The position numbers and the translations under genes are program-made. The notes under the pieces were generated by a model. That model saw only the letters and a list, made by a program, of their open reading frames with translations. It was not told the DNA's origin and made no database searches. From the NCBI GenBank assembly GCA_035620615.1, contig DASPGM010000014.1, positions 21,226-53,225 on the forward strand: DNA of 32,000 nucleotides. Direction: 5' to 3'. The stretch comes from Nitrosopumilaceae archaeon (lineage in GTDB: Archaea > Thermoproteota > Nitrososphaeria > Nitrososphaerales > Nitrosopumilaceae). Below are positions 22,253 through 31,941 of this stretch, one piece after another (position 1 is the stretch's first letter; the number at the start of each line of letters is the position of its first letter).

Positions 22253-23356
22253 ATGATCCCAGATAAAATCCAACAAATGAGACGCTTAGGATACTCTATT
22301 TCACTAGTTTTATCATTTATTATAATATCCTATGGTGTCTCAGGGCCAGTTTTTGGTCAACTCAACCAAACTGAAAGTCAACAGAATTGTGGTCCTAATG
22401 AAATTTTTAGAGATGGACAATGTATTGCTGGTGTTGATCCAACTCCTGCAAACCCAAATTTACTTTTAGAACCTAAAAATAATCCAACTTTCATTCAAGG
22501 AAACAAAGTCATGATTTCTGGGAAAGTCAAACTAGATCCAATTCTTCAACATGCCGTTACTATTCAAATTTTAAATCCTGAAGGTAAGATTGTATCTATT
22601 GATCAATCTTTACCCCAGTCTGATGGTTCTTTTGTTTTTGAATTTATAGCAGATGGTCCTCTTTGGAAGACTTCGGGATCTTATGAAGTTAAAGCAAGAT
22701 ATGGTCCTGAAAAGGCAAGTATTAATTTTAATTTTAAGGGTGATATTACAACAGCACCTCCACCACCAAAATGTGGTCCTAATCAAGAGCTGGTAGATGG
22801 AATCTGTAAGAATAAAGAAACAACTCCACCACCCCCACCTCCACCAAAATGTGGAGCCAATCAAGAATTAGTCAATGGAATATGCATTGATAAGGAACCA
22901 GTGGTCACTCCACCACCCCCACCACCAACATGTGGCACCGGTACTCATTTAGAGAATGGAAAATGTGTTCCTGATGAAGAAAGAGGTGGATGTTTAATTG
23001 CAACTGCAGCATTTGGTACTGAATTAGCACCACAAGTTCAAATGCTAAGAGAAATTCGTGATAATGCCGTTCTTGGGACTGTATCTGGAACTGCCTTTAT
23101 GACCGGATTTAACACATTTTACTATTCATTTTCACCAACAATTGCTGATTGGGAACGTGAAAATCCAATATTCCAAGATGCAGTTAGAATCACCATAACT
23201 CCAATGCTGATGTCACTCTCGTTACTAAATCACGTCGATATAGATTCTGAGGCAGAAATGTTAGGTTACGGATTAAGTCTAATAATCTTGAATCTTGGAA
23301 TGTACTTTGTAGCACCAGCTATTGTAATAGTAAAATTAAAGAAAAGATTACAATAA
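22253..23356 (+). CDS. Secreted protein with beta-sandwich domain, Cys-hairpin/poly-Pro modules and CFI-box-like C-terminal membrane domain
   Basis: 367-aa ORF with a signal/anchor. Four CGxxxxLxxGxC modules separated by PPPPPP linkers. GCLIATAAFGTELAPQVQMLREIRDN…SPTIADW…NP…VR matches the archaeal C[FL]IATAA[YF]G…LRE[FI]RD C-terminal domain as I remember it. Terminal TM helix plus KLKKRLQ. Confidence 0.75.
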   Translation: MIPDKIQQMRRLGYSISLVLSFIIISYGVSGPVFGQLNQTESQQNCGPNEIFRDGQCIAGVDPTPANPNLLLEPKNNPTFIQGNKVMISGKVKLDPILQHAVTIQILNPEGKIVSIDQSLPQSDGSFVFEFIADGPLWKTSGSYEVKARYGPEKASINFNFKGDITTAPPPPKCGPNQELVDGICKNKETTPPPPPPPKCGANQELVNGICIDKEPVVTPPPPPPTCGTGTHLENGKCVPDEERGGCLIATAAFGTELAPQVQMLREIRDNAVLGTVSGTAFMTGFNTFYYSFSPTIADWERENPIFQDAVRITITPMLMSLSLLNHVDIDSEAEMLGYGLSLIILNLGMYFVAPAIVIVKLKKRLQ

Positions 23357-23402: not shown

Positions 23403-23729
23403 TTGATGCATATAGAATATGAAGAATTTGAATCAATTGAAGATATTTTCATGTACATGTCTTCGGTAGCACCCCCGATGAAAAATACTCTACCCATAAA
23501 TTCTTACAAAGGTTATGTTTTCTCTTTTATTCCATTAAGTCATTCTAACGGAGATGTTTATCTTTTTATTTACACAAAAGGAAAACTTGAAGGGAGAATT
23601 TTAGAATTTGATACCAATTCACATTCTTATAAAAAAGTAGAATCAATTGAAAGAGCAGATAAAAATTATTTTATTGTTCTTCATCCAAAAAGAAATACAA
23701 TTGCAGATGTAGCTCTAGAAAAATTATAA
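23403..23729 (+). CDS. Hypothetical protein (108 aa)
   Basis: ORF only (TTG 23403 / ATG 23406), with no recognisable motif. Convergent 6-nt overlap with the radical SAM gene. Confidence 0.4.
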   Translation: MMHIEYEEFESIEDIFMYMSSVAPPMKNTLPINSYKGYVFSFIPLSHSNGDVYLFIYTKGKLEGRILEFDTNSHSYKKVESIERADKNYFIVLHPKRNTIADVALEKL

Positions 23730-25301
23730 TTTTTTAGTTTCAATCTTTGGCGCACTAACTGATCTACTCCGTGCATATTTTTCTACAATCTCATCAGGCA
23801 TTCTTCCATTGAATAGATCTTTACATAAACCACGTAAGTATCTCATAATTGCCCATGTTCCTGCTTTAATTATTCCATACATGAAAACTTTCATTGCTGG
23901 TCCATAAGTTTTATTCCTTAAAATAATTGGAATAATATCATTAATTACACGTAAATTATTTTCCCAGCACTTCCAAAATAACGTGAATTGGGCCTCATTT
24001 AGATTACCGAAATGCATTGAATTTTTCTCACTAAAATCTTGATAAAGTAAAGGTGCAACAAGACCTCTAAAGTTTGTAGCCCTAAAATCCTTCATCATAT
24101 CGATAGTGTATTGAACTTCATCAGGGGTTTCATCTGGCCATCCGATAATTATTGTCGCAGCTGGGAACCAATGATTCTCATTAAGAATTCTTGCTCCTTC
24201 TCTAACTACACTTCCCCATTCATCAGTTGAAAATGGCTTGGTTTTTACTCCTAGGTGTTTTTTAACCATACGTGGGGCTACTGTTTCAATTCCAAGATTT
24301 GTAGAAAGCCACCTTCCATTTTTTTGCATTTCATTTATTTCGGAAATATTTTGAAGAAGCTTCGGATCTGCTGCTACTGCTGAGAAGGTCATATGGGTAG
24401 TACCAATAAAATTGGGACCTAAACTTTTCAAACCTTTCCATAATTCAGTAATAGCGTCTCTGTTTGGTACAAATTCTCTGTTATCACATCCATAAAGTAA
24501 CATTTCATCAGAATGTAACCAAATTGAATCAAAACCATAATCTAGATTTATTTTTGCTTCATGCTTTAATCTCTCCAGAGGTAAATCTTTTTTTGATCTT
24601 TTATTTACATCACAAAAATCACAACCCCTTCCGCATCCTCGCATAGCCTCAATCAGTGAATTCACAGTGGGACCTTCAATAATTGGAATATTTTGAATAT
24701 TTTTCACAAAACAATGCATTAATTCAGGAGCATCTCCTTTCTCCAAATCATTAAATAAATCCAAGGCTAATTCATCTGCTTCACCAACAACTACAGTGTC
24801 TATTCCATGAATTTTCATTCTATCGGTTTTTGCAAGCTCCCATGCGCCATTTCCTCCTACAACTACCTTGAAATCATATTTTTTCTTTAATTGAATTATA
24901 TTTGCACACATTTTTTTGAACTTCATAGCTACATAAGATAATTTTTCTGGAGACATTGTTGTTGTAACAGGTGCCATACCAAGGGGATCCATTACATTAA
25001 TTCCTACCACTTTTGTTTCTGGACCTATGGATTTTTCAAGGTAATCTGGATTTGCTACAAAAACTTCATCTTTTTTGTATCCTTGTAGTAAAGCACTTTC
25101 TACTCGTCGTAAACCTACTTGAGCAACTTTTGCTTCCCCAGTTACAGGATCTGTCTCCACTGCTGGACAAAAAACCTTGTCAAAAACCCATTCAGGAAGT
25201 ACTTCATATGGTCCACACGCAATAAATCCATAAAGAAAATTTCCTCTATAGTTTGTCATCAAACTACGGTCTGCTGTTAGAACTATTCGCTTGCCTGACA
25301 C
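23724..25301 (-). CDS. Radical SAM enzyme with N-terminal B12-binding-like (Rossmann) domain
   Basis: 525-aa ORF with a GTG start. CX3CX2C motif MRGCGRGCDFCDV (24612-24635). The upstream KVVVGGNGAWELA…VVVGEADE segment resembles the cobalamin-binding-domain fold of class B radical SAM enzymes. Confidence 0.85.
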   Translation of the reverse strand: MSGKRIVLTADRSLMTNYRGNFLYGFIACGPYEVLPEWVFDKVFCPAVETDPVTGEAKVAQVGLRRVESALLQGYKKDEVFVANPDYLEKSIGPETKVVGINVMDPLGMAPVTTTMSPEKLSYVAMKFKKMCANIIQLKKKYDFKVVVGGNGAWELAKTDRMKIHGIDTVVVGEADELALDLFNDLEKGDAPELMHCFVKNIQNIPIIEGPTVNSLIEAMRGCGRGCDFCDVNKRSKKDLPLERLKHEAKINLDYGFDSIWLHSDEMLLYGCDNREFVPNRDAITELWKGLKSLGPNFIGTTHMTFSAVAADPKLLQNISEINEMQKNGRWLSTNLGIETVAPRMVKKHLGVKTKPFSTDEWGSVVREGARILNENHWFPAATIIIGWPDETPDEVQYTIDMMKDFRATNFRGLVAPLLYQDFSEKNSMHFGNLNEAQFTLFWKCWENNLRVINDIIPIILRNKTYGPAMKVFMYGIIKAGTWAIMRYLRGLCKDLFNGRMPDEIVEKYARSRSVSAPKIETKKL

Positions 25302-25392: not shown

Positions 25393-26115
25393 ATGAAAGA
25401 CATTAGTGAGCCTCGACATTTAGAACCTCATATTAATGAGTCAAGCTCAATGCGTGATTTTATTTTTGGTTTTGGTGATGGAATAAATACTTCATTAGGA
25501 ATTGCTGCAGGAGTTGGTGGGGCTTCTGTTTCATCAGATCTAATAATTCTTGCAGCCCTAGTAGCTATGTTTACAGGGGCAAAGGCCATGGCAGTTCAAA
25601 ATTATTTAGCTGTTAAATCTCAACGAGAATTATTATCTTCAGAAATTAATCGAGAAAACTGGGAAATAGAAAATAAACCAGAAGATGAAAGAAAAGAGAT
25701 TGAGGATATCTACAAAGCTAAGGGTTTTACAGGAAATGATCTTAAAATGATTGTAGATAAAATCACTTCTGATAAAAAAGTCTGGTTAGACACAATGCTT
25801 AGAGAGGAATTAAATTTGAATTTAGAAATTCTTGGACATCCAATAAAAAGTGCACTACGAATGTTTGGAGCATTTTTAATTGGAGGCATACTTCCAATAA
25901 TTCCATTTTTCTTTAGTTCCGGATTTACCCCACTTTTTATTGCAATTGGAATGAGTCTTGCTGCCTCCTTCATCGTTGGTGCGGTTAAATCAAGAATGGC
26001 AAATACAAGTTTTCTTAAAGGAGGAATAGAAATGGCAGGTTTAGGAACCGGCATAGCATTAATTGGATATGGAATTGGTAGTGAATTATCTAGTCTTGGA
26101 ATAATTAATGTTTAG
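25393..26115 (+). CDS. VIT1/CCC1-family iron/manganese transporter
   Basis: 240-aa ORF. FGFGDGINTSLGIAAGVGGA, an acidic cytoplasmic helical insert (EDERKEIEDIY) and C-terminal TM helices are typical of the VIT family. Confidence 0.85.
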   Translation: MKDISEPRHLEPHINESSSMRDFIFGFGDGINTSLGIAAGVGGASVSSDLIILAALVAMFTGAKAMAVQNYLAVKSQRELLSSEINRENWEIENKPEDERKEIEDIYKAKGFTGNDLKMIVDKITSDKKVWLDTMLREELNLNLEILGHPIKSALRMFGAFLIGGILPIIPFFFSSGFTPLFIAIGMSLAASFIVGAVKSRMANTSFLKGGIEMAGLGTGIALIGYGIGSELSSLGIINV

Positions 26116-26887
26116 ATCTTTTAAGATTAACCCTATTTGCAATACTTGCAGCCATTGCACCAGCACCTATCCCATTATCAATATTTACAACTGCTAATCC
26201 AAGGGAACAACTTTGTAACATCGATGCTAATGTTGCAATACCTTTTTCTCCATAACCATATCCAACCGAAGTAGGTACTCCAATTACTGGTACATTAACT
26301 GATGATGAAACAAGTGTTGCTAAAGCCCCTTCCATTCCTGCAACTACTACAATCGAATCAACCTCGTTTTTAATAAATTCCTTGAGAGCAGGAAACACTC
26401 TATGTAAACCTGCAACTCCCACATCATAACTGCATATGCAATTACAACACATTGATTTACACATTAGCCTTGCTTCTTCGGCTACACCTATATCCGAAGT
26501 CCCTGCAGCTAAGATGCCTACTACTCCTTTATTTTTTTTCACGGGTTTTTTGTAAATAAAAATGGTTGATGAATTTTTTCCAATATCCACCTTAAATTTA
26601 CTTTTCTTAGAAAACTCTAATATTTTATTAATATCATTTTTTTTTAATCTAGAAACAAGCATAGAATTTGATTTTTTTAATACTCTTTGAATGATTTTTT
26701 TGGTTTCACTAAATTGTTTATGTTCTGCAAATATTACTTCTGGAATTCCATGTCGATGCTTTCTCCCAATATCAATTTTTGCAAAATCTTCAATTTTTTC
26801 TAATGAATAAAGTGATAATAACTTACGTGAATGGGATACCGTAATTTTCCCAGATTTTAATGAATTTAGAATATCATCTAATTCCAA
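26105..26887 (-). CDS. larB: Nickel-pincer cofactor biosynthesis protein LarB (NaAD carboxylase/hydrolase, PurE-like)
   Basis: 260-aa ORF with a TTG start. The PurE-like core VGILAAGTSDIGVAEEA…VVAGMEGALATLV…PVIGVPTSVGYG and the N-terminal extension are typical of LarB. Confidence 0.85.
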   Translation of the reverse strand: MELDDILNSLKSGKITVSHSRKLLSLYSLEKIEDFAKIDIGRKHRHGIPEVIFAEHKQFSETKKIIQRVLKKSNSMLVSRLKKNDINKILEFSKKSKFKVDIGKNSSTIFIYKKPVKKNKGVVGILAAGTSDIGVAEEARLMCKSMCCNCICSYDVGVAGLHRVFPALKEFIKNEVDSIVVVAGMEGALATLVSSSVNVPVIGVPTSVGYGYGEKGIATLASMLQSCSLGLAVVNIDNGIGAGAMAASIANRVNLKRSKH

Positions 26888-26923
26888 TGTGAATTTAACG
26901 ATTTATTTCAGTTAAAAATCTAA

Positions 26924-27838
26924 TTAGATGTTTAAATTCGAAATGGCATTTTTTACACTTTCGGCTGATTTTCTAAGGTCGTTTTTTTCTTCATTATTAA
27001 GTTCTAATTCAATAATTTTTTCAACACCATTTTTTCCAATTACGGCTGGAACTCCCATTGTAATATTAGAAAATCCATATTCCCCATCCAGTGCTGTTGC
27101 AACAGGGATTATTTTTTTTTGATCTCTTACTACCGCTTCTATAATTGTAGAAATTGCATTACCTGGTGCATGTATAGTGGCACCTTTTTGTTCAATGACT
27201 TTTGCAGCAACCTGTTTAGTATTTTGTATCAATTCATCAAGTTTATCTTTTGTAAGAAGCGATGTTAGAGGAATCCCAGATACTGATGAAAATCTAGTTA
27301 ATGGTAACATGTTTTCTCCATGTTCTCCTATTACTAAAGCTCGAATAGAACTTCGGGAATGTCCAGTTGCCTCATGAATAAATTGTATAAATCTTGAAAG
27401 ATCCAGCATATTTCCCATTCCAAATATTCTATTTCTTTTAAAACCTGAAACTTTGTATGCAACATGCGCCATAGGATCCAGAGGATTTGTTACTGGAACA
27501 ATCATAGAATCTTTTGCATATTTTTTTATATTCTCTACTACATCTTTTACAATACCAGTATTGATTTTCAGAAGATCCATTCTAGTCATTCCAGGTTTTC
27601 TTCCAGAACCTGCAACCACTACAACAATTTTAGAATTTTTCATCTCTGAATAATCATTAGAACCTTTTATTTCAACATCCATTCCTTTTTCAGATAACAT
27701 GTGATTCAAATCCATAGCTTCACCTTGGGGTAATCCTTTTACAATATCAAGCAAAAGAATTTCATCATCTAATTTCTTCAGAGCTGTAAAAAGGGCTGCA
27801 GCAGCCCCCACTTTTCCAGAACCAATTATAGTTATCAT
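26924..27838 (-). CDS. mdh: Malate dehydrogenase (LDH-like family)
   Basis: 304-aa [18 protein letters not shown] (Rossmann fold). The substrate-specificity loop [14 protein letters not shown] has Arg at the LDH Gln102-equivalent position, which indicates MDH. Catalytic IGEHGE. Confidence 0.9.
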
Positions 27839-27928
27839 GTCATGCGATTTTAATTCTCATTAATTAAATCTAGTGAATTTTAAATTCTATTCAAGAGAAT
27901 TTATATTCATTTTATTGATCTAAAAAAT

Positions 27929-29161
27929 ATGGTAATTGTAATAGATTCTCAGATTGCTGGAATATCTGGTGATATGTTACTTTGTGCTTTGGTGGATTTA
28001 GGTGCAAATAAATTAAAAATTATCAAAGCAATTAAAATCTCAGAAAAAAACATGAGCGGTTCTATCATTAAAAAAATTGATTTTTGTAAAGTAAAGAAAA
28101 ATGGAGTTGAAGCAACTGAATTAATTTTGGATATTGATGAAAAAACTCATGAGCGTAAAGGAACTGAAATTCAAAAATGTATTGAAAAATCAATAAATGA
28201 AATTGGACTTTCAGAAAAAGCTAAAAGTTTTGCAATTGCAAGTATTGAAACTTTAATGAAGGCTGAATCAAAGATTCATGGCTCTCCAATATCATCCGTT
28301 CACTTTCATGAAGCCTCAAGTATTGATACTGTGATAGATATTATAGGAACAGCAACTGCAATTGATGATTTAAAATTATTTGCGGAGGAATTTATTTCTA
28401 CTCAGGTAGCAGTAGGAGGTGGGACCTTAACTTTTTCGCATGGCACTACCTCTAATCCAGCTAGTGCAGTTTTAGAAATCCTGAAAAACTCTCAAATAAT
28501 GATCTCTGGAGGTCAAGTAAATGAAGAATTAACTACTCCAACAGGTGCAAGTATGTTAACCAATTTAACAAAGACATGTTTAGATTTTTACCCAAAAATG
28601 AGAGTAAATTCTATAGGTTATGGGGCAGGTAAGAAAAATTTTGACGGATTTTCAAACGTATTAAAAATAATTCAAGGTGAAAAAACTAAATTCTATCATC
28701 AAGACGTGGTTCAAATTTTAGAAACAAATGTTGATGATGTTTCAGGGGAATTACTTGGGAATTTAATTGAAAAAATTATGTCATTTGGAGCAAAAGATGT
28801 TACTATTACTTCAGCAATTACTAAAAAGGGTCGACCTACAAATCTTGTATCGGTTATATGTGATTCTGAATCAATGAACTCAATTATAGAATTATTGATT
28901 TCTGAAACAGGTACACTAGGTATACGAGTTCGTTCTTCGGAAAGATATACCGTCCCAAGAACAGTAGAAAAAATTCCTATAAAAATCGAGGGTTTAATTT
29001 TTGAGGTAAATTGTAAAATAGTCTATGAAGAGAATAAAATAAAAAATTTCAAGATTGAATATGATGATATCGTATTAATCTCTAAAACAATTAATCAATC
29101 CTTCAAAAAAACCGAGGAATTAATTCGAATAGCTGTTAAGGATAATTTGGGTCTTAAATGA
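27929..29161 (+). CDS. larC: Nickel insertion protein LarC (pyridinium-3,5-bisthiocarboxylic acid mononucleotide nickel chelatase, DUF111)
   Basis: 410-aa ORF. The N-terminus DSQIAGISGDMLLCALVDLGAN and the HFHEASSIDTVIDIIG motif are characteristic of DUF111/LarC. Confidence 0.9.
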   Translation: MVIVIDSQIAGISGDMLLCALVDLGANKLKIIKAIKISEKNMSGSIIKKIDFCKVKKNGVEATELILDIDEKTHERKGTEIQKCIEKSINEIGLSEKAKSFAIASIETLMKAESKIHGSPISSVHFHEASSIDTVIDIIGTATAIDDLKLFAEEFISTQVAVGGGTLTFSHGTTSNPASAVLEILKNSQIMISGGQVNEELTTPTGASMLTNLTKTCLDFYPKMRVNSIGYGAGKKNFDGFSNVLKIIQGEKTKFYHQDVVQILETNVDDVSGELLGNLIEKIMSFGAKDVTITSAITKKGRPTNLVSVICDSESMNSIIELLISETGTLGIRVRSSERYTVPRTVEKIPIKIEGLIFEVNCKIVYEENKIKNFKIEYDDIVLISKTINQSFKKTEELIRIAVKDNLGLK

Positions 29162-29958
29162 CAACACTAATTGATCTAATTAATTGGTTTAATGGTAAAA
29201 ATAGTGTACTAGTAGCGCTTTCTGGTGGAGTAGATAGTGCATTAGTTGCTTATGCAGCATTTCAAAATTTAGGAAATTCGGCAATAGCTGTCACTGCTGA
29301 TTACAAAACTCTTTCAAGAGATGAATTATCTTCAGCAAGAAACGTTTGTAATGAAATTGGAATTAAGCAAATAATAATTAATTATAATGAATTAGAAAAT
29401 GAAAATTTTGTGCTAAATGACAAAAATCGATGTTTCTATTGTAGAGACGAATTGGCAAAAAAACTGAAAGATCTTGCAATGGAACTTGGGGTGGAAACCA
29501 TTGTGGATGGAACCCAATCTGATGATTTAGCCGATTATCGACCAGGTATTAGAGCACTCAAATCAAATGGAATTCAAAGCCCATTATTAGAAATTCAATT
29601 TACAAAACAACAGGTTCGAGATGAAGCTAAAAGAATTAATTTATCAGTTTTTGATAGACCATCCAATTCTTGCTTAGCTTCTCGCATACCTTGGGGTCAG
29701 AGGATTAGTGCTGAGCGACTTGCTAGAATTGAGGTAGGAGAAACAATTGTAAAACAAACCCTTGGTGCAAATCAGGTCCGTGTAAGGGATTTTGATGGAG
29801 TAGCAAAAATAGAAGTTGCAAAAAATGAATTGGAACTTATTTCTAATAAATCCAAGATTAATGAAATAATTATTAAATTATTACAAATTGGTTTTAAATC
29901 AGTAATAATTGATCCAGAAGGATACAAATCTGGGAAGATCAATGTTTTAGTTGATTGA
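29158..29958 (+). CDS. larE: ATP-dependent sulfur transferase LarE (PP-loop ATP pyrophosphatase)
   Basis: 266-aa ORF with PP-loop ALSGGVDSALVA. Cys92/Cys95 (RCFYCR) and Cys172 (SNSCLASR). ATGA overlap with the larC stop. Confidence 0.9.
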   Translation: MTTLIDLINWFNGKNSVLVALSGGVDSALVAYAAFQNLGNSAIAVTADYKTLSRDELSSARNVCNEIGIKQIIINYNELENENFVLNDKNRCFYCRDELAKKLKDLAMELGVETIVDGTQSDDLADYRPGIRALKSNGIQSPLLEIQFTKQQVRDEAKRINLSVFDRPSNSCLASRIPWGQRISAERLARIEVGETIVKQTLGANQVRVRDFDGVAKIEVAKNELELISNKSKINEIIIKLLQIGFKSVIIDPEGYKSGKINVLVD

Positions 29959-31112
29959 TCTACCTAGATAATGCAGCATCAACACCTCTACATGAGCAGG
30001 TTTTTCACGAGATGGTTCCATTTTTACAAGAGCAATTTGGAAATCCTTCCTCTATTCACAAATTTGGTAGAACTGCACAAAGAGCACTTCAAAATTCTAG
30101 AAAGCAAATTGCCAAATTAATAAATGCTGAACCCAATGAAATTCTATTTACATCTGGAGGAACCGAATCAAATAATACTGCACTATTTGGATTTACTAAC
30201 CACGCAAAAGGAAACCATATTATTACTTCATCTATTGAACATGAAGCAATTTTAGAACCATGTAAGAAACTCCAAAAAGAAGGTTTTGAAATTACTTTTG
30301 TTCCTGTAAATGATTTCGGAATGATAAATTTATTCGATATTGAAAAATCAATTACACCTAAAACATGTCTTGTTAGCATTATGTTTGCAAACAATGAAGT
30401 AGGCACAATTCAACCAATCAAAAAAATTTCCAAAATATGTCATGATAAACATGTAATTTTTCACACTGATGCGGTTCAAGCAATTGGCAAAGTCAACGTA
30501 GATGTCAAAGAACTTGATATTGATTTGTTATCTTTATCATCTCATAAAATTAATGGTCCTAAAGGAGTTGGTGCTTTATACATAAAAAATGGAATTAAAC
30601 TAAATCCTTTCATTTTTGGTGGTGGCCAGGAAAACGGTATGAGATCCGGTACAGAGAATGTTGCAAGTATTGTTGGGTTTGGAAAAGCGTGTCAGCTTGC
30701 AATGGATAACATGTCTCAAAATATCTCTCACCTAACAAATGTTAGAAATTATTTAATCAAAAAAATAACCTCAGAGATACCTTTGGTTAGGTTAAATGGA
30801 CATCCAGACCAAAGGATAGCAAATAATGCACACTTTACATTTCTTGGTGTGAATGGAGAAGACCTTATTATCAAACTTGATGAAAATGGGATTGCAGCGT
30901 CTACCGGTTCTGCTTGCTCTGTTTTAGTACAAAAGGAATCTCATGTTCTAAAAGCAATGGGTTTCTCCCATGAACAAATTACTGGCTCTTTACGTCTAAC
31001 TGTTGGAATATCAAATACCAAATCAGAGATTGATAAAACTGTGGAAATTTTAAAAAATGTAGTAAAAGAACTCCGTGCATTTTCGCCACTTAAAGAAAAA
31101 TACAGTTTTTAG
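29955..31112 (+). CDS. Cysteine desulfurase (NifS/IscS-like class V aminotransferase)
   Basis: 385-aa ORF with a TTG start overlapping the larE stop (TTGA). MIYLDNAASTP, PLP-lysine SSHKINGPKGVG, catalytic Cys in STGSACS. Confidence 0.9.
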   Translation: MIYLDNAASTPLHEQVFHEMVPFLQEQFGNPSSIHKFGRTAQRALQNSRKQIAKLINAEPNEILFTSGGTESNNTALFGFTNHAKGNHIITSSIEHEAILEPCKKLQKEGFEITFVPVNDFGMINLFDIEKSITPKTCLVSIMFANNEVGTIQPIKKISKICHDKHVIFHTDAVQAIGKVNVDVKELDIDLLSLSSHKINGPKGVGALYIKNGIKLNPFIFGGGQENGMRSGTENVASIVGFGKACQLAMDNMSQNISHLTNVRNYLIKKITSEIPLVRLNGHPDQRIANNAHFTFLGVNGEDLIIKLDENGIAASTGSACSVLVQKESHVLKAMGFSHEQITGSLRLTVGISNTKSEIDKTVEILKNVVKELRAFSPLKEKYSF

Positions 31113-31122
31113 AAAAACACAA

Positions 31123-31941
31123 TTAATATGAATTTTTTAATGGTATACGGTATTTTGATGATACTAAAATAATTGAGATTATTCCCACTATTAGAACTAA
31201 CATTACTATGTTTCCAAATTCTGGAACTACGAAAGTTCCGATAATTTCAATATCTGAATCTCCATCTTCAAAATTTATTGTAATTTTTCTTAAATCTACA
31301 TTATTTTCATTTTCCTCATATGGTACTTCTACTCCATCAATTAGAATAATATAGCTATCATCTGTGTTATCATTCTTTTTTGCATCAATTGATTTTCGAG
31401 GCAAATCTAGGATGATAAATCCATCATCTTCAGTTTCTATGATGACAATTAATGCAAAAATTTCTGGATCAACAATCATGTCTTTTACTGTTGCTCCTTT
31501 TACTGTGTAGTGTATATCGAAAGTTCCATAACTTCCTGCATTTACCTCGAAAATATCTGTCGTCTCTCTAATCGAAAGTTTAGTGTGATATTCAAATTCT
31601 GTTTCAACCATGTAATTTGCACCATAAGACGCTCTAATGATATACGTTCCATCTTTTTGCCAATATGGCCCCTTAGCTAGCATTGTATGTGTATATTTTC
31701 CATCTTGGGCCACAGTAATCTGTGCAATATCAATTAAATTTCCTTCATAAAATATTTGTAATGTTACAGGAGTGTCAATTATAACTGCTGTAACATTTCC
31801 AGAAACAATAATAGCATCTCCTTCTTCATAAGATTTTTCAGAAGTTTTTACGGAAAGTAGTTCTGGAGTTTGTGCCAAAGCTGTAAATGTAGAAAAAGAT
31901 AATATCGCACACACTAGACATAATACGACTTTATATTTCAT
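31123..31941 (-). CDS. PEFG-CTERM sorting-domain surface protein
   Basis: 272-aa ORF with signal peptide …FTALAQ. Beta-sandwich domain related to those in the 22253 and 18957 proteins. C-terminus VVPEFGNIVMLVLIVGIISIILVSSKYR… gives the PEFG motif, a TM helix and a basic tail (31126-31224). Confidence 0.8.
   Translation of the reverse strand: MKYKVVLCLVCAILSFSTFTALAQTPELLSVKTSEKSYEEGDAIIVSGNVTAVIIDTPVTLQIFYEGNLIDIAQITVAQDGKYTHTMLAKGPYWQKDGTYIIRASYGANYMVETEFEYHTKLSIRETTDIFEVNAGSYGTFDIHYTVKGATVKDMIVDPEIFALIVIIETEDDGFIILDLPRKSIDAKKNDNTDDSYIILIDGVEVPYEENENNVDLRKITINFEDGDSDIEIIGTFVVPEFGNIVMLVLIVGIISIILVSSKYRIPLKNSY

Follow-up and report, generated by a model that had tools for sequence, protein, structure and literature searches.

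Enzymes that depend on nickel-pincer cofactors extend beyond the LarA family: NphT, which has an aldo-keto reductase (AKR) fold, and an NPAD-dependent ornithine cyclodeaminase (OCD) are known non-LarA nickel-pincer enzymes (PMC13524815, 2026). On the biosynthetic side, a CXXC-C motif defines the [4Fe-4S], non-sacrificial class of the sulfur insertase LarE, which is recharged by IscS in vitro (PMC9283937). Among ammonia-oxidizing archaea (AOA), the parts of Kerou et al. 2021 considered here describe LarA as specific to the sediment clades NP-theta, NP-delta and NP-iota, list larB and larC as its maturation system and leave the substrate open; by that account, the joint presence of LarA, larB and larC in sediment clades of AOA is already known (PMC8397731). 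In this work, we analyzed a 32,000-nt stretch of contig DASPGM010000014.1 from a Nitrosopumilaceae archaeon (assembly GCA_035620615.1; hereafter, the window), in which genes for the synthesis of the nickel-pincer nucleotide (NPN) lie on both sides of a malate dehydrogenase gene (mdh). Our best explanation overall, to which we give a probability of roughly 70%, is that this is an NPN cluster arranged around an ordinary mdh, that its cofactor serves a LarA homologue encoded on another contig of the same genome (C12), and that a second client is likely across AOA.

Open reading frames (ORFs) of the window were taken from a six-frame list and assigned to families by profile searches judged against curated model cut-offs; the source genome is 96.7% complete. 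The locus and its immediate flanks comprise the following features:

25393-26115, + strand: VIT1-family gene, from the six-frame ORF list
26105-26887, - strand: larB, nicotinic acid adenine dinucleotide (NaAD) carboxylase/hydrolase, first step of NPN synthesis (NF033503, 243.3 bits; cut-off 175)
26888-26923, - strand: 36-nt mdh-larB spacer, with a conserved T-run just past the mdh stop codon
26924-27838, - strand: mdh, canonical NAD-dependent malate dehydrogenase (MDH) of the lactate dehydrogenase (LDH)-like type (NF004863, 377 bits; cut-off 283)
27839-27928, no strand: 90-nt divergent promoter region between mdh and larC, with two family-wide boxes
27929-29161, + strand: larC, CTP-dependent nickel cyclometallase, LarC1 and LarC2 fused in-frame (PF01969, 357 bits)
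29158-29958, + strand: larE, ATP-dependent sulfur insertase with a PP-loop, [4Fe-4S] (CXXC-C) type (TIGR00268, 255 bits; cut-off 150)
29955-31112, + strand: NifS/IscS-type cysteine desulfurase, probable sulfur donor of LarE (Aminotran_5, 302 bits)
31123-31941, - strand: PEFG-CTERM sorting-domain protein (TIGR04296 match), a conserved downstream neighbour outside the pathway

LarB carries a PurE-like AIRC domain (PF00731, 61.5 bits) in addition to scoring over the LarB equivalog cut-off, and LarC is a single 410-aa frame in which both the LarC1 part (TIGR00299, 167 against a cut-off of 90) and the LarC2 part (NF052512, 118 against 50) were found. The letters themselves were checked for the gene junctions, giving an ATGA overlap of larC with larE at 29158-29161 and a TTGA overlap of larE with the desulfurase gene at 29955-29958. 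An earlier interpretation of the letters (the sequence-only reading) had named these five genes, their layout, the 36-nt gap and both overlaps, and had concluded that the LarB/LarE/LarC pathway is complete and that the window holds no LarA. All of this was borne out by the ORFs, the letters and the curated models, each pathway model scoring over its curated cut-off, and a profile search of the window ORFs returned no LarA within the 32,000 nt. The locus is, hence, a real and complete NPN biosynthesis cluster of AOA-typical architecture, with mdh embedded and the desulfurase gene coupled to larE. The arrangement is non-random, as mdh followed by larB, with larC divergent, recurs in 30/30 family loci and in three other AOA families.

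With regard to sulfur supply, LarE has an SGGVDS PP-loop at residues 22-27 and a triad formed by Cys92, Cys95 and Cys172, and this combination of SGGxDS loop and CXXC-C triad assigns it by motif to the [4Fe-4S]-dependent class. The desulfurase is closest to NifS, at 512 bits under the cut-off of 531, and passes the IscS-subfamily model NF002806 (344 against 304). The genome has four genes of the class-V aminotransferase fold, this one included, and the highest score among them belongs to a copy on contig C3. The lar-linked gene stays with larC-larE both in another AOA family (f3) and after relocation of the module. Judged from gene context and family, its product is most likely a dedicated sulfur donor for LarE, and the overlapping larE-desulfurase pair provides genomic support for the mechanism of a [4Fe-4S] LarE recharged by IscS. 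By orthology to characterised enzymes, LarB would carboxylate and hydrolyse NaAD, LarE would insert two sulfurs and be re-charged by the translationally coupled desulfurase, and the fused LarC would insert nickel. Their genes form two back-to-back units around mdh, with the two conserved promoter boxes in the 90-nt spacer.

The sequence-only reading had further proposed a cofactor pathway without a LarA client, and had named a genome-wide LarA search as a check. That proposal fails for this genome: the whole-genome search, which used the Lar_N and LarA_C domain models, found on contig C12 a 423-aa LarA homologue (Lar_N 194.3 bits, LarA_C 53.9 bits) carrying the full NPN-binding and catalytic set. 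Its best solved relatives are the malate racemase Mar2 (E 3e-59) and the LarA of T. thermosaccharolyticum (E 3e-57), and solved LarA and Mar structures match it at E values of 3e-59 to 3e-46. In alignments to 2YJG and 6D6Z, its D69, R72, H105, H170, K180 and H196 correspond to D72, R75, H108, H174, K184 and H200 of LarA, where His108 and His174 are catalytic, Lys184 is the tether and His200 is a nickel ligand. As all six positions match in the structure alignments, the cofactor-binding and catalytic set is intact, and the presence of both domains with this set of His/His/Lys/His, Asp and Arg places the protein in the LarA superfamily. Its closest relatives form a clade restricted to Nitrosopumilaceae down to about 50% identity, followed by Chloroflexota sequences at 40-44%; a contig scan with LarA returned only four loci.

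In the region that specifies the substrate, the loop after the second catalytic His reads QF in the C12 protein, YK in Mar2 and FF in LarA, and alpha14 carries an Arg where Mar2 has a Lys. The best subgroup model is that of malate racemase (NF052593, 346 bits against 500), while NF052595 gives 317 bits against 462 and the lactate racemase model NF033504 gives 322 bits against 460. We rejected an assignment as malate racemase (Mar2/LarAH6 or Mar1/LarAH5) on the QF loop, the TI of alpha11, the Arg of alpha14 and the scores under the cut-offs, and an assignment as lactate racemase sensu stricto on a QF loop in place of Phe-Phe and an NF033504 score under the cut-off. From its residues, the substrate pocket fits no characterised LarA homologue (LarAH) group, and the candidate is most likely a LarA-family 2-hydroxyacid racemase or epimerase rather than a lactate or malate racemase proper. 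The most likely user of the cofactor in this genome would be this LarA-family enzyme.

The surroundings of LarA were also inspected. The gene is convergent with a 442-aa HD-domain gene in 14/16 loci (L037-L051; L005:6597-7925), and a weakly Nramp-like membrane protein, which may be a divalent-metal transporter, adjoins its other side in 10/16 loci. In four loci, the Nramp-like gene is on the same strand just upstream of LarA; otherwise it is divergent, usually with a small unannotated gene in between. In the source genome, an SNF2 helicase takes the place of this neighbour. No NicO/HoxN-type nickel permease was found in the genome search, in which the CbiMQ families were not searched genome-wide.

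We then focused our attention on the distribution of lar genes and LarA. In a family sample of 151 Nitrosopumilaceae genomes from 27 genera, 144 genomes, representing all 27 genera, had a LarB score over the cut-off, and Lar_N was found in 16 genomes of only three genera (g1, 6/9; g3, 7/7; g12, 2/2). Close congeners of the source genome, G015 and G040, have no LarA. A class-wide sample included four AOA families (152 genomes: f1, 126; f2, 6; f3, 17; f5, 3) and a single genome of a non-AOA sister family (f4), with these results:

f1 (Nitrosopumilaceae): LarB 125/126, LarC 125/126, Lar_N 1/126
f2: LarB 6/6, LarC 6/6, Lar_N 0/6
f3: LarB 17/17, LarC 17/17, Lar_N 0/17
f5: LarB 3/3, LarC 3/3, Lar_N 0/3
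f4 (non-AOA sister): LarB 0/1, LarC 0/1, Lar_N 0/1

The distributions of LarB and LarC are identical in this sample, each protein being found in 151/152 genomes of the four AOA families taken together and rarely outside the order, and LarA is absent from all 26 genomes of f2, f3 and f5. The sole f1 genome without LarB also has neither LarC nor MDH, a pattern suggestive of an assembly gap that covers one locus. The amoA gene is carried by f2, f3 and f5, and is absent from the complete, lar-negative f4 genome (G235). The general idea of lar genes without LarA, put forward by the sequence-only reading, therefore holds at the level of the clade, where nearly all AOA keep larB and larC without LarA. 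A reverse orphan pattern was observed in family f9, in which Lar_N is present in 7/7 genomes, often in several copies, and LarB and LarC in only 1/7.

To evaluate whether selection on the pathway is relaxed where LarA is missing, ratios of nonsynonymous to synonymous substitution (dN/dS) were calculated by the Nei-Gojobori method on within-genus pairs. For larB, LarA-negative genera gave values of 0.03-0.10 and LarA-positive genera values of 0.06-0.16, with 0.075 in a LarA-negative pair within the source genus; for mdh, the values were 0.02-0.10. Purifying selection on larB is equally strong with or without LarA. Since the lar genes are near-universal and larB remains under purifying selection without LarA, LarA cannot be what maintains the pathway in AOA, and an additional client is the simplest explanation for its maintenance. 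A second NPN-dependent protein probably exists across AOA, the source genome included, and it too would be served by the cofactor made here. A more specific version of this idea stands, in our view, at about even odds: that all AOA have a non-LarA nickel-pincer enzyme outside the known client families, that its recruitment dates from the time when the clade arose and mdh joined the lar locus, and that it may be linked to carbon assimilation at the malate/oxaloacetate branch point. A literature search on Lar proteins in cultured AOA found nothing relevant. AOA are among the most abundant microbes of oceans and soils. If true for all of them, the proposal would mean a hidden nickel requirement in global nitrification and one more protein family among the very few nickel-pincer enzymes known. 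Moreover, LarA-dependent and LarA-independent uses of the cofactor could be told apart by a natural comparison here, because the source genome has the lar-mdh cluster together with LarA, while its congeners G015 and G040 are without LarA.

Candidates for a second client were sought elsewhere in the genome. Contig C10 encodes a 360-aa LarA_C-like protein (G000:C10:10297-11376; L006:5295-6377, - strand) that belongs to the published LarAH group 12: it matched the Nitrosopumilus members of that family, its N-terminus is common to NKOR_01295 and NSED_01400 (Dataset S2, Desguin et al.), and the catalytic and NPN-binding residues are absent from it. The protein is conserved over most of the class, including lar-negative families, and some sources name it a 'transcriptional regulator'. 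Its presence in 114/114 high-quality genomes of the family, together with a C-terminal half that matches LarA_C and Mar2, could make this universal protein a general NPN client of AOA. However, it has no His in residues 1-197, and the catalytic His, the nickel-ligand His and the Lys tether are all missing; it is common in lar-negative families (f6, 8/8; f9, 7/7; f11, 10/12; f4, 1/1); and Desguin et al. excluded group 12, whose catalytic and NPN-binding residues are not conserved, and found no activity in the N. gargensis member. We consider a general client role for group 12 extremely improbable, and the C10 protein was rejected on its residues, phyletic pattern and the published data.

Other families gave no better candidate. 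The OCD/mu-crystallin family (PF02423) had no match at E <= 0.01 in this 96.7% complete genome, and an NPAD-dependent OCD was rejected as client, there being no gene of the family. Two AKR genes were found, neither of them near the lar genes; one is a full-length match to NADPH-dependent AKRs, as expected of a conventional NADPH enzyme, and the other matches only weakly and over part of its length. Both were set aside on these matches; an NphT-like enzyme would be marked by a His144/Lys200 motif and a lost AMP pocket. DUF362 was also discarded as a client family, the sole match in the genome being LarA itself.

The conservation of gene order beyond this strain was another check named by the sequence-only reading, and the mdh-lar adjacency proved to hold in each of the four AOA families. 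With few exceptions among the AOA loci inspected, mdh lies beside larC, larB or both, and the order in f3 is identical to that described here, with larC, larE and the desulfurase gene on one side and mdh and larB on the other. In f2 and f5 (L064-L067, L074, L076), the larC/mdh pair is kept and etfB, etfA and a 630-aa flavoprotein resembling electron-transfer flavoprotein (ETF):quinone oxidoreductase lie between mdh and larB, on the same strand. In two non-AOA relatives the lar loci are without mdh, and the f9 locus has the classical layout of larB / larC-larE-cbiM-cbiQ, with an energy-coupling factor (ECF) metal transporter. The linkage is not absolute, as larB, larC and mdh are dispersed in G019 and larC has moved at least 10 kb away in some genomes of g14, g15 and g16. 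Two modules survive such breaks, one formed by larC-larE-desulfurase with the downstream PEFG-CTERM genes and the other by larB with a radical-SAM gene.

Within the 90-nt spacer, two promoter-like boxes are conserved family-wide, one on the mdh side (27858-27875) and a BRE/TATA-like one on the larC side (27896-27913). A palindrome with 7-bp arms (27882-27902) was rejected as a conserved operator, its left arm being found in the three closest relatives only and its right arm lying within the conserved larC TATA box. The run of five to seven T in the mdh-larB gap is conserved in family loci and may act as an archaeal terminator, as a TATA-like box some 30 nt ahead of the larB start, or in both ways. 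Overall, the position of mdh is an ancestral feature of AOA gene order, and mdh has most likely been kept in place because the lar genes share or depend on its promoter region.

The genes around the cluster were also surveyed. One to three PEFG-CTERM genes in tandem are convergent to the lar-linked desulfurase, and they are kept after module relocation in three genomes (L101, L103, L104). The radical-SAM gene (23724-25301, - strand) encodes a 525-aa B12-binding-like protein, with identities of 87-98% between Nitrosopumilaceae genera and of 74-78% to its counterparts in other AOA families; G235, the non-AOA sister, has no copy, and in f2 there are several paralogues. In G019, where mdh has moved away, the gene is still 34 nt downstream of larB. 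It was rejected as a lar partner, since the adjacency is confined to f1 and the distance in f3 is 129 kb. No solved relative of the protein was better than E 6e-4, and our guess is a lipid-ring or other clade-specific role. For the 367-aa product of a further gene of the window (22253-23356, + strand), the only annotation is a CFI-box-CTERM sorting domain (NF041770, E 1e-19).

Because genes annotated as NAD(P) oxidoreductases beside larBCE can encode nickel-pincer enzymes, MDH was checked directly as a client, this annotation being a published lead to new ones (PMC13524815). That the embedded MDH is itself the conserved client, binding NPN or NPAD in place of NAD, would also suit the observation that the lineage lacking LarA is the one in which mdh joined the lar locus. 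However, its best solved structures are MDHs (E 3e-89), and the residues tested in LDH numbering (GxGxxG, Asp53, Arg102, Arg109, Asn140, Asp168, Arg171 and His195) identify a LDH-like NAD-MDH, with G6/G8/G11, D31, N118, D146, R149 and H173 invariant in 51 sequences and R80 and R86 both present in the GRKPGMTR loop; the dinucleotide pocket (GxGxxG, Asp31) and the catalytic set are thus unaltered. Comparison of 41 AOA sequences with 10 from lar-negative relatives showed 24 AOA-specific positions, all of them conservative changes and none of them introducing a His or Lys; conservation of His is limited to residues 46 and 173, which the lar-negative outgroups have as well. Moreover, the MDH of the lar-negative, amoA-negative sister G235 has 12/24 of the AOA-specific residues, while the other nine outgroups have almost none. 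In addition, mdh is separated from the lar genes in G019, and lar-positive genomes outside AOA are mostly without this MDH. Use of the cofactor by MDH is therefore unlikely, and we regard its being the conserved client as very improbable.

A second LDH/MDH paralogue, on contig C16, was also considered and rejected as client: it is without the malate-specifying Arg (Arg102) and the NAD-specifying Asp (Asp53), but is present in 16/27 genera and tracks neither LarA nor the lar genes. Both dehydrogenase genes adjoin a convergent VIT1-family gene, namely that of the window (25393-26115, + strand) and its counterpart in G000:C16 (L083:1192-2789). Identity is 42% between the two VIT1 proteins and 33% between the two dehydrogenases, and the pairs are possibly an old paired duplication.

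These results also bear on the link to malate suggested by the sequence-only reading, of which the mdh adjacency is real, while the functional link is weak, with mdh canonical and the C12 LarA lacking the Mar2 substrate signature. It could still be argued that the pathway is an orphan in this genome, its sole user being a client of malate or other 2-hydroxyacid metabolism at which mdh hints, as the window and most AOA have no LarA and conservation of the mdh adjacency extends over the order. Against this, the genome encodes the C12 LarA with all NPN-binding residues, the source clade is described as LarA-positive in the relevant parts of earlier work (PMC8397731), and mdh shows no departure from a canonical NAD-MDH. 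This possibility is, in our judgement, unlikely.

Several observations weigh against our preferred explanation of a cluster around an ordinary mdh that serves the C12 LarA and probably a second client. In the C12 LarA, the equivalent of the substrate-carboxylate Lys298 is Ile294 (alpha11 YQATI), the protein scores under the cut-off of every curated LarAH subgroup model, and its gene is unlinked to the lar cluster, on another contig. Moreover, mdh is deeply conserved between larC and larB in AOA yet absent from non-AOA lar loci, which fits a functional tie. Finally, no candidate second client was found among the LarAH12, DUF362, AKR and OCD families. The last point would also favour a use of the Lar proteins that does not involve loading of a client, in which LarA-less AOA would keep them for a free nickel-thiocarboxylate metabolite or for moonlighting, with no second client protein. 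However, the three lar genes and the desulfurase gene have been kept as a set and are conserved, as would be anticipated if the complete cofactor is made, and in all its known uses NPN is bound to an enzyme as cofactor (PMC7583248, PMC13524815). A non-loading use consequently seems quite unlikely to us, and the preferred explanation, with C12 LarA as the client in this genome and a second one across AOA, is maintained.

When compared to known systems, a precedent for the LarA-less AOA is that of NphT and OCD, where the presence of larBCE but not of LarA is a pointer to clients that carry NAD(P)-enzyme annotations (PMC13524815); in contrast to those systems, no OCD-family gene is present here, and the two AKRs are away from the lar genes. 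For the C12 LarA, Mar2/LarAH6 (6D6Z) is the best match among both structures and NCBIfam models, with the NPN-binding and catalytic residues and a positive residue in alpha14 in common, but the loop is QF and not YK, alpha11 reads YQATI and not YQAQK, and the score of 346 bits is under the cut-off of 500. The LarA of deep-sea sediment Nitrosopumilales (Kerou et al. 2021, PMC8397731) is likewise limited to few Nitrosopumilaceae lineages, with larB and larC as maturation system in the parts of that article considered here; the universal lar genes of LarA-less AOA, the embedded mdh and the desulfurase coupling found in this work are not reported in those parts. The larA-larBCDE and larMNQO lactate racemase operons of Lactiplantibacillus plantarum share with this genome the same three biosynthetic families and a LarA-family client. 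Here, however, LarA is unlinked and on another contig, LarE is not of the sacrificial single-Cys type, there is no larD, no LarMNQO-type transporter genes lie beside the cluster in the window, and mdh and a desulfurase gene are embedded in it. The NPN system of Thermotoga maritima (PMC9283937) also shares the SGGxDS PP-loop, the CXXC-C triad, a cysteine desulfurase as expected sulfur source and a single fused LarC. The two differ in arrangement, as the desulfurase genes of T. maritima are distant from larE, whereas in the locus described here larE and the desulfurase gene overlap and relocate together, and the lar cluster is split around mdh.

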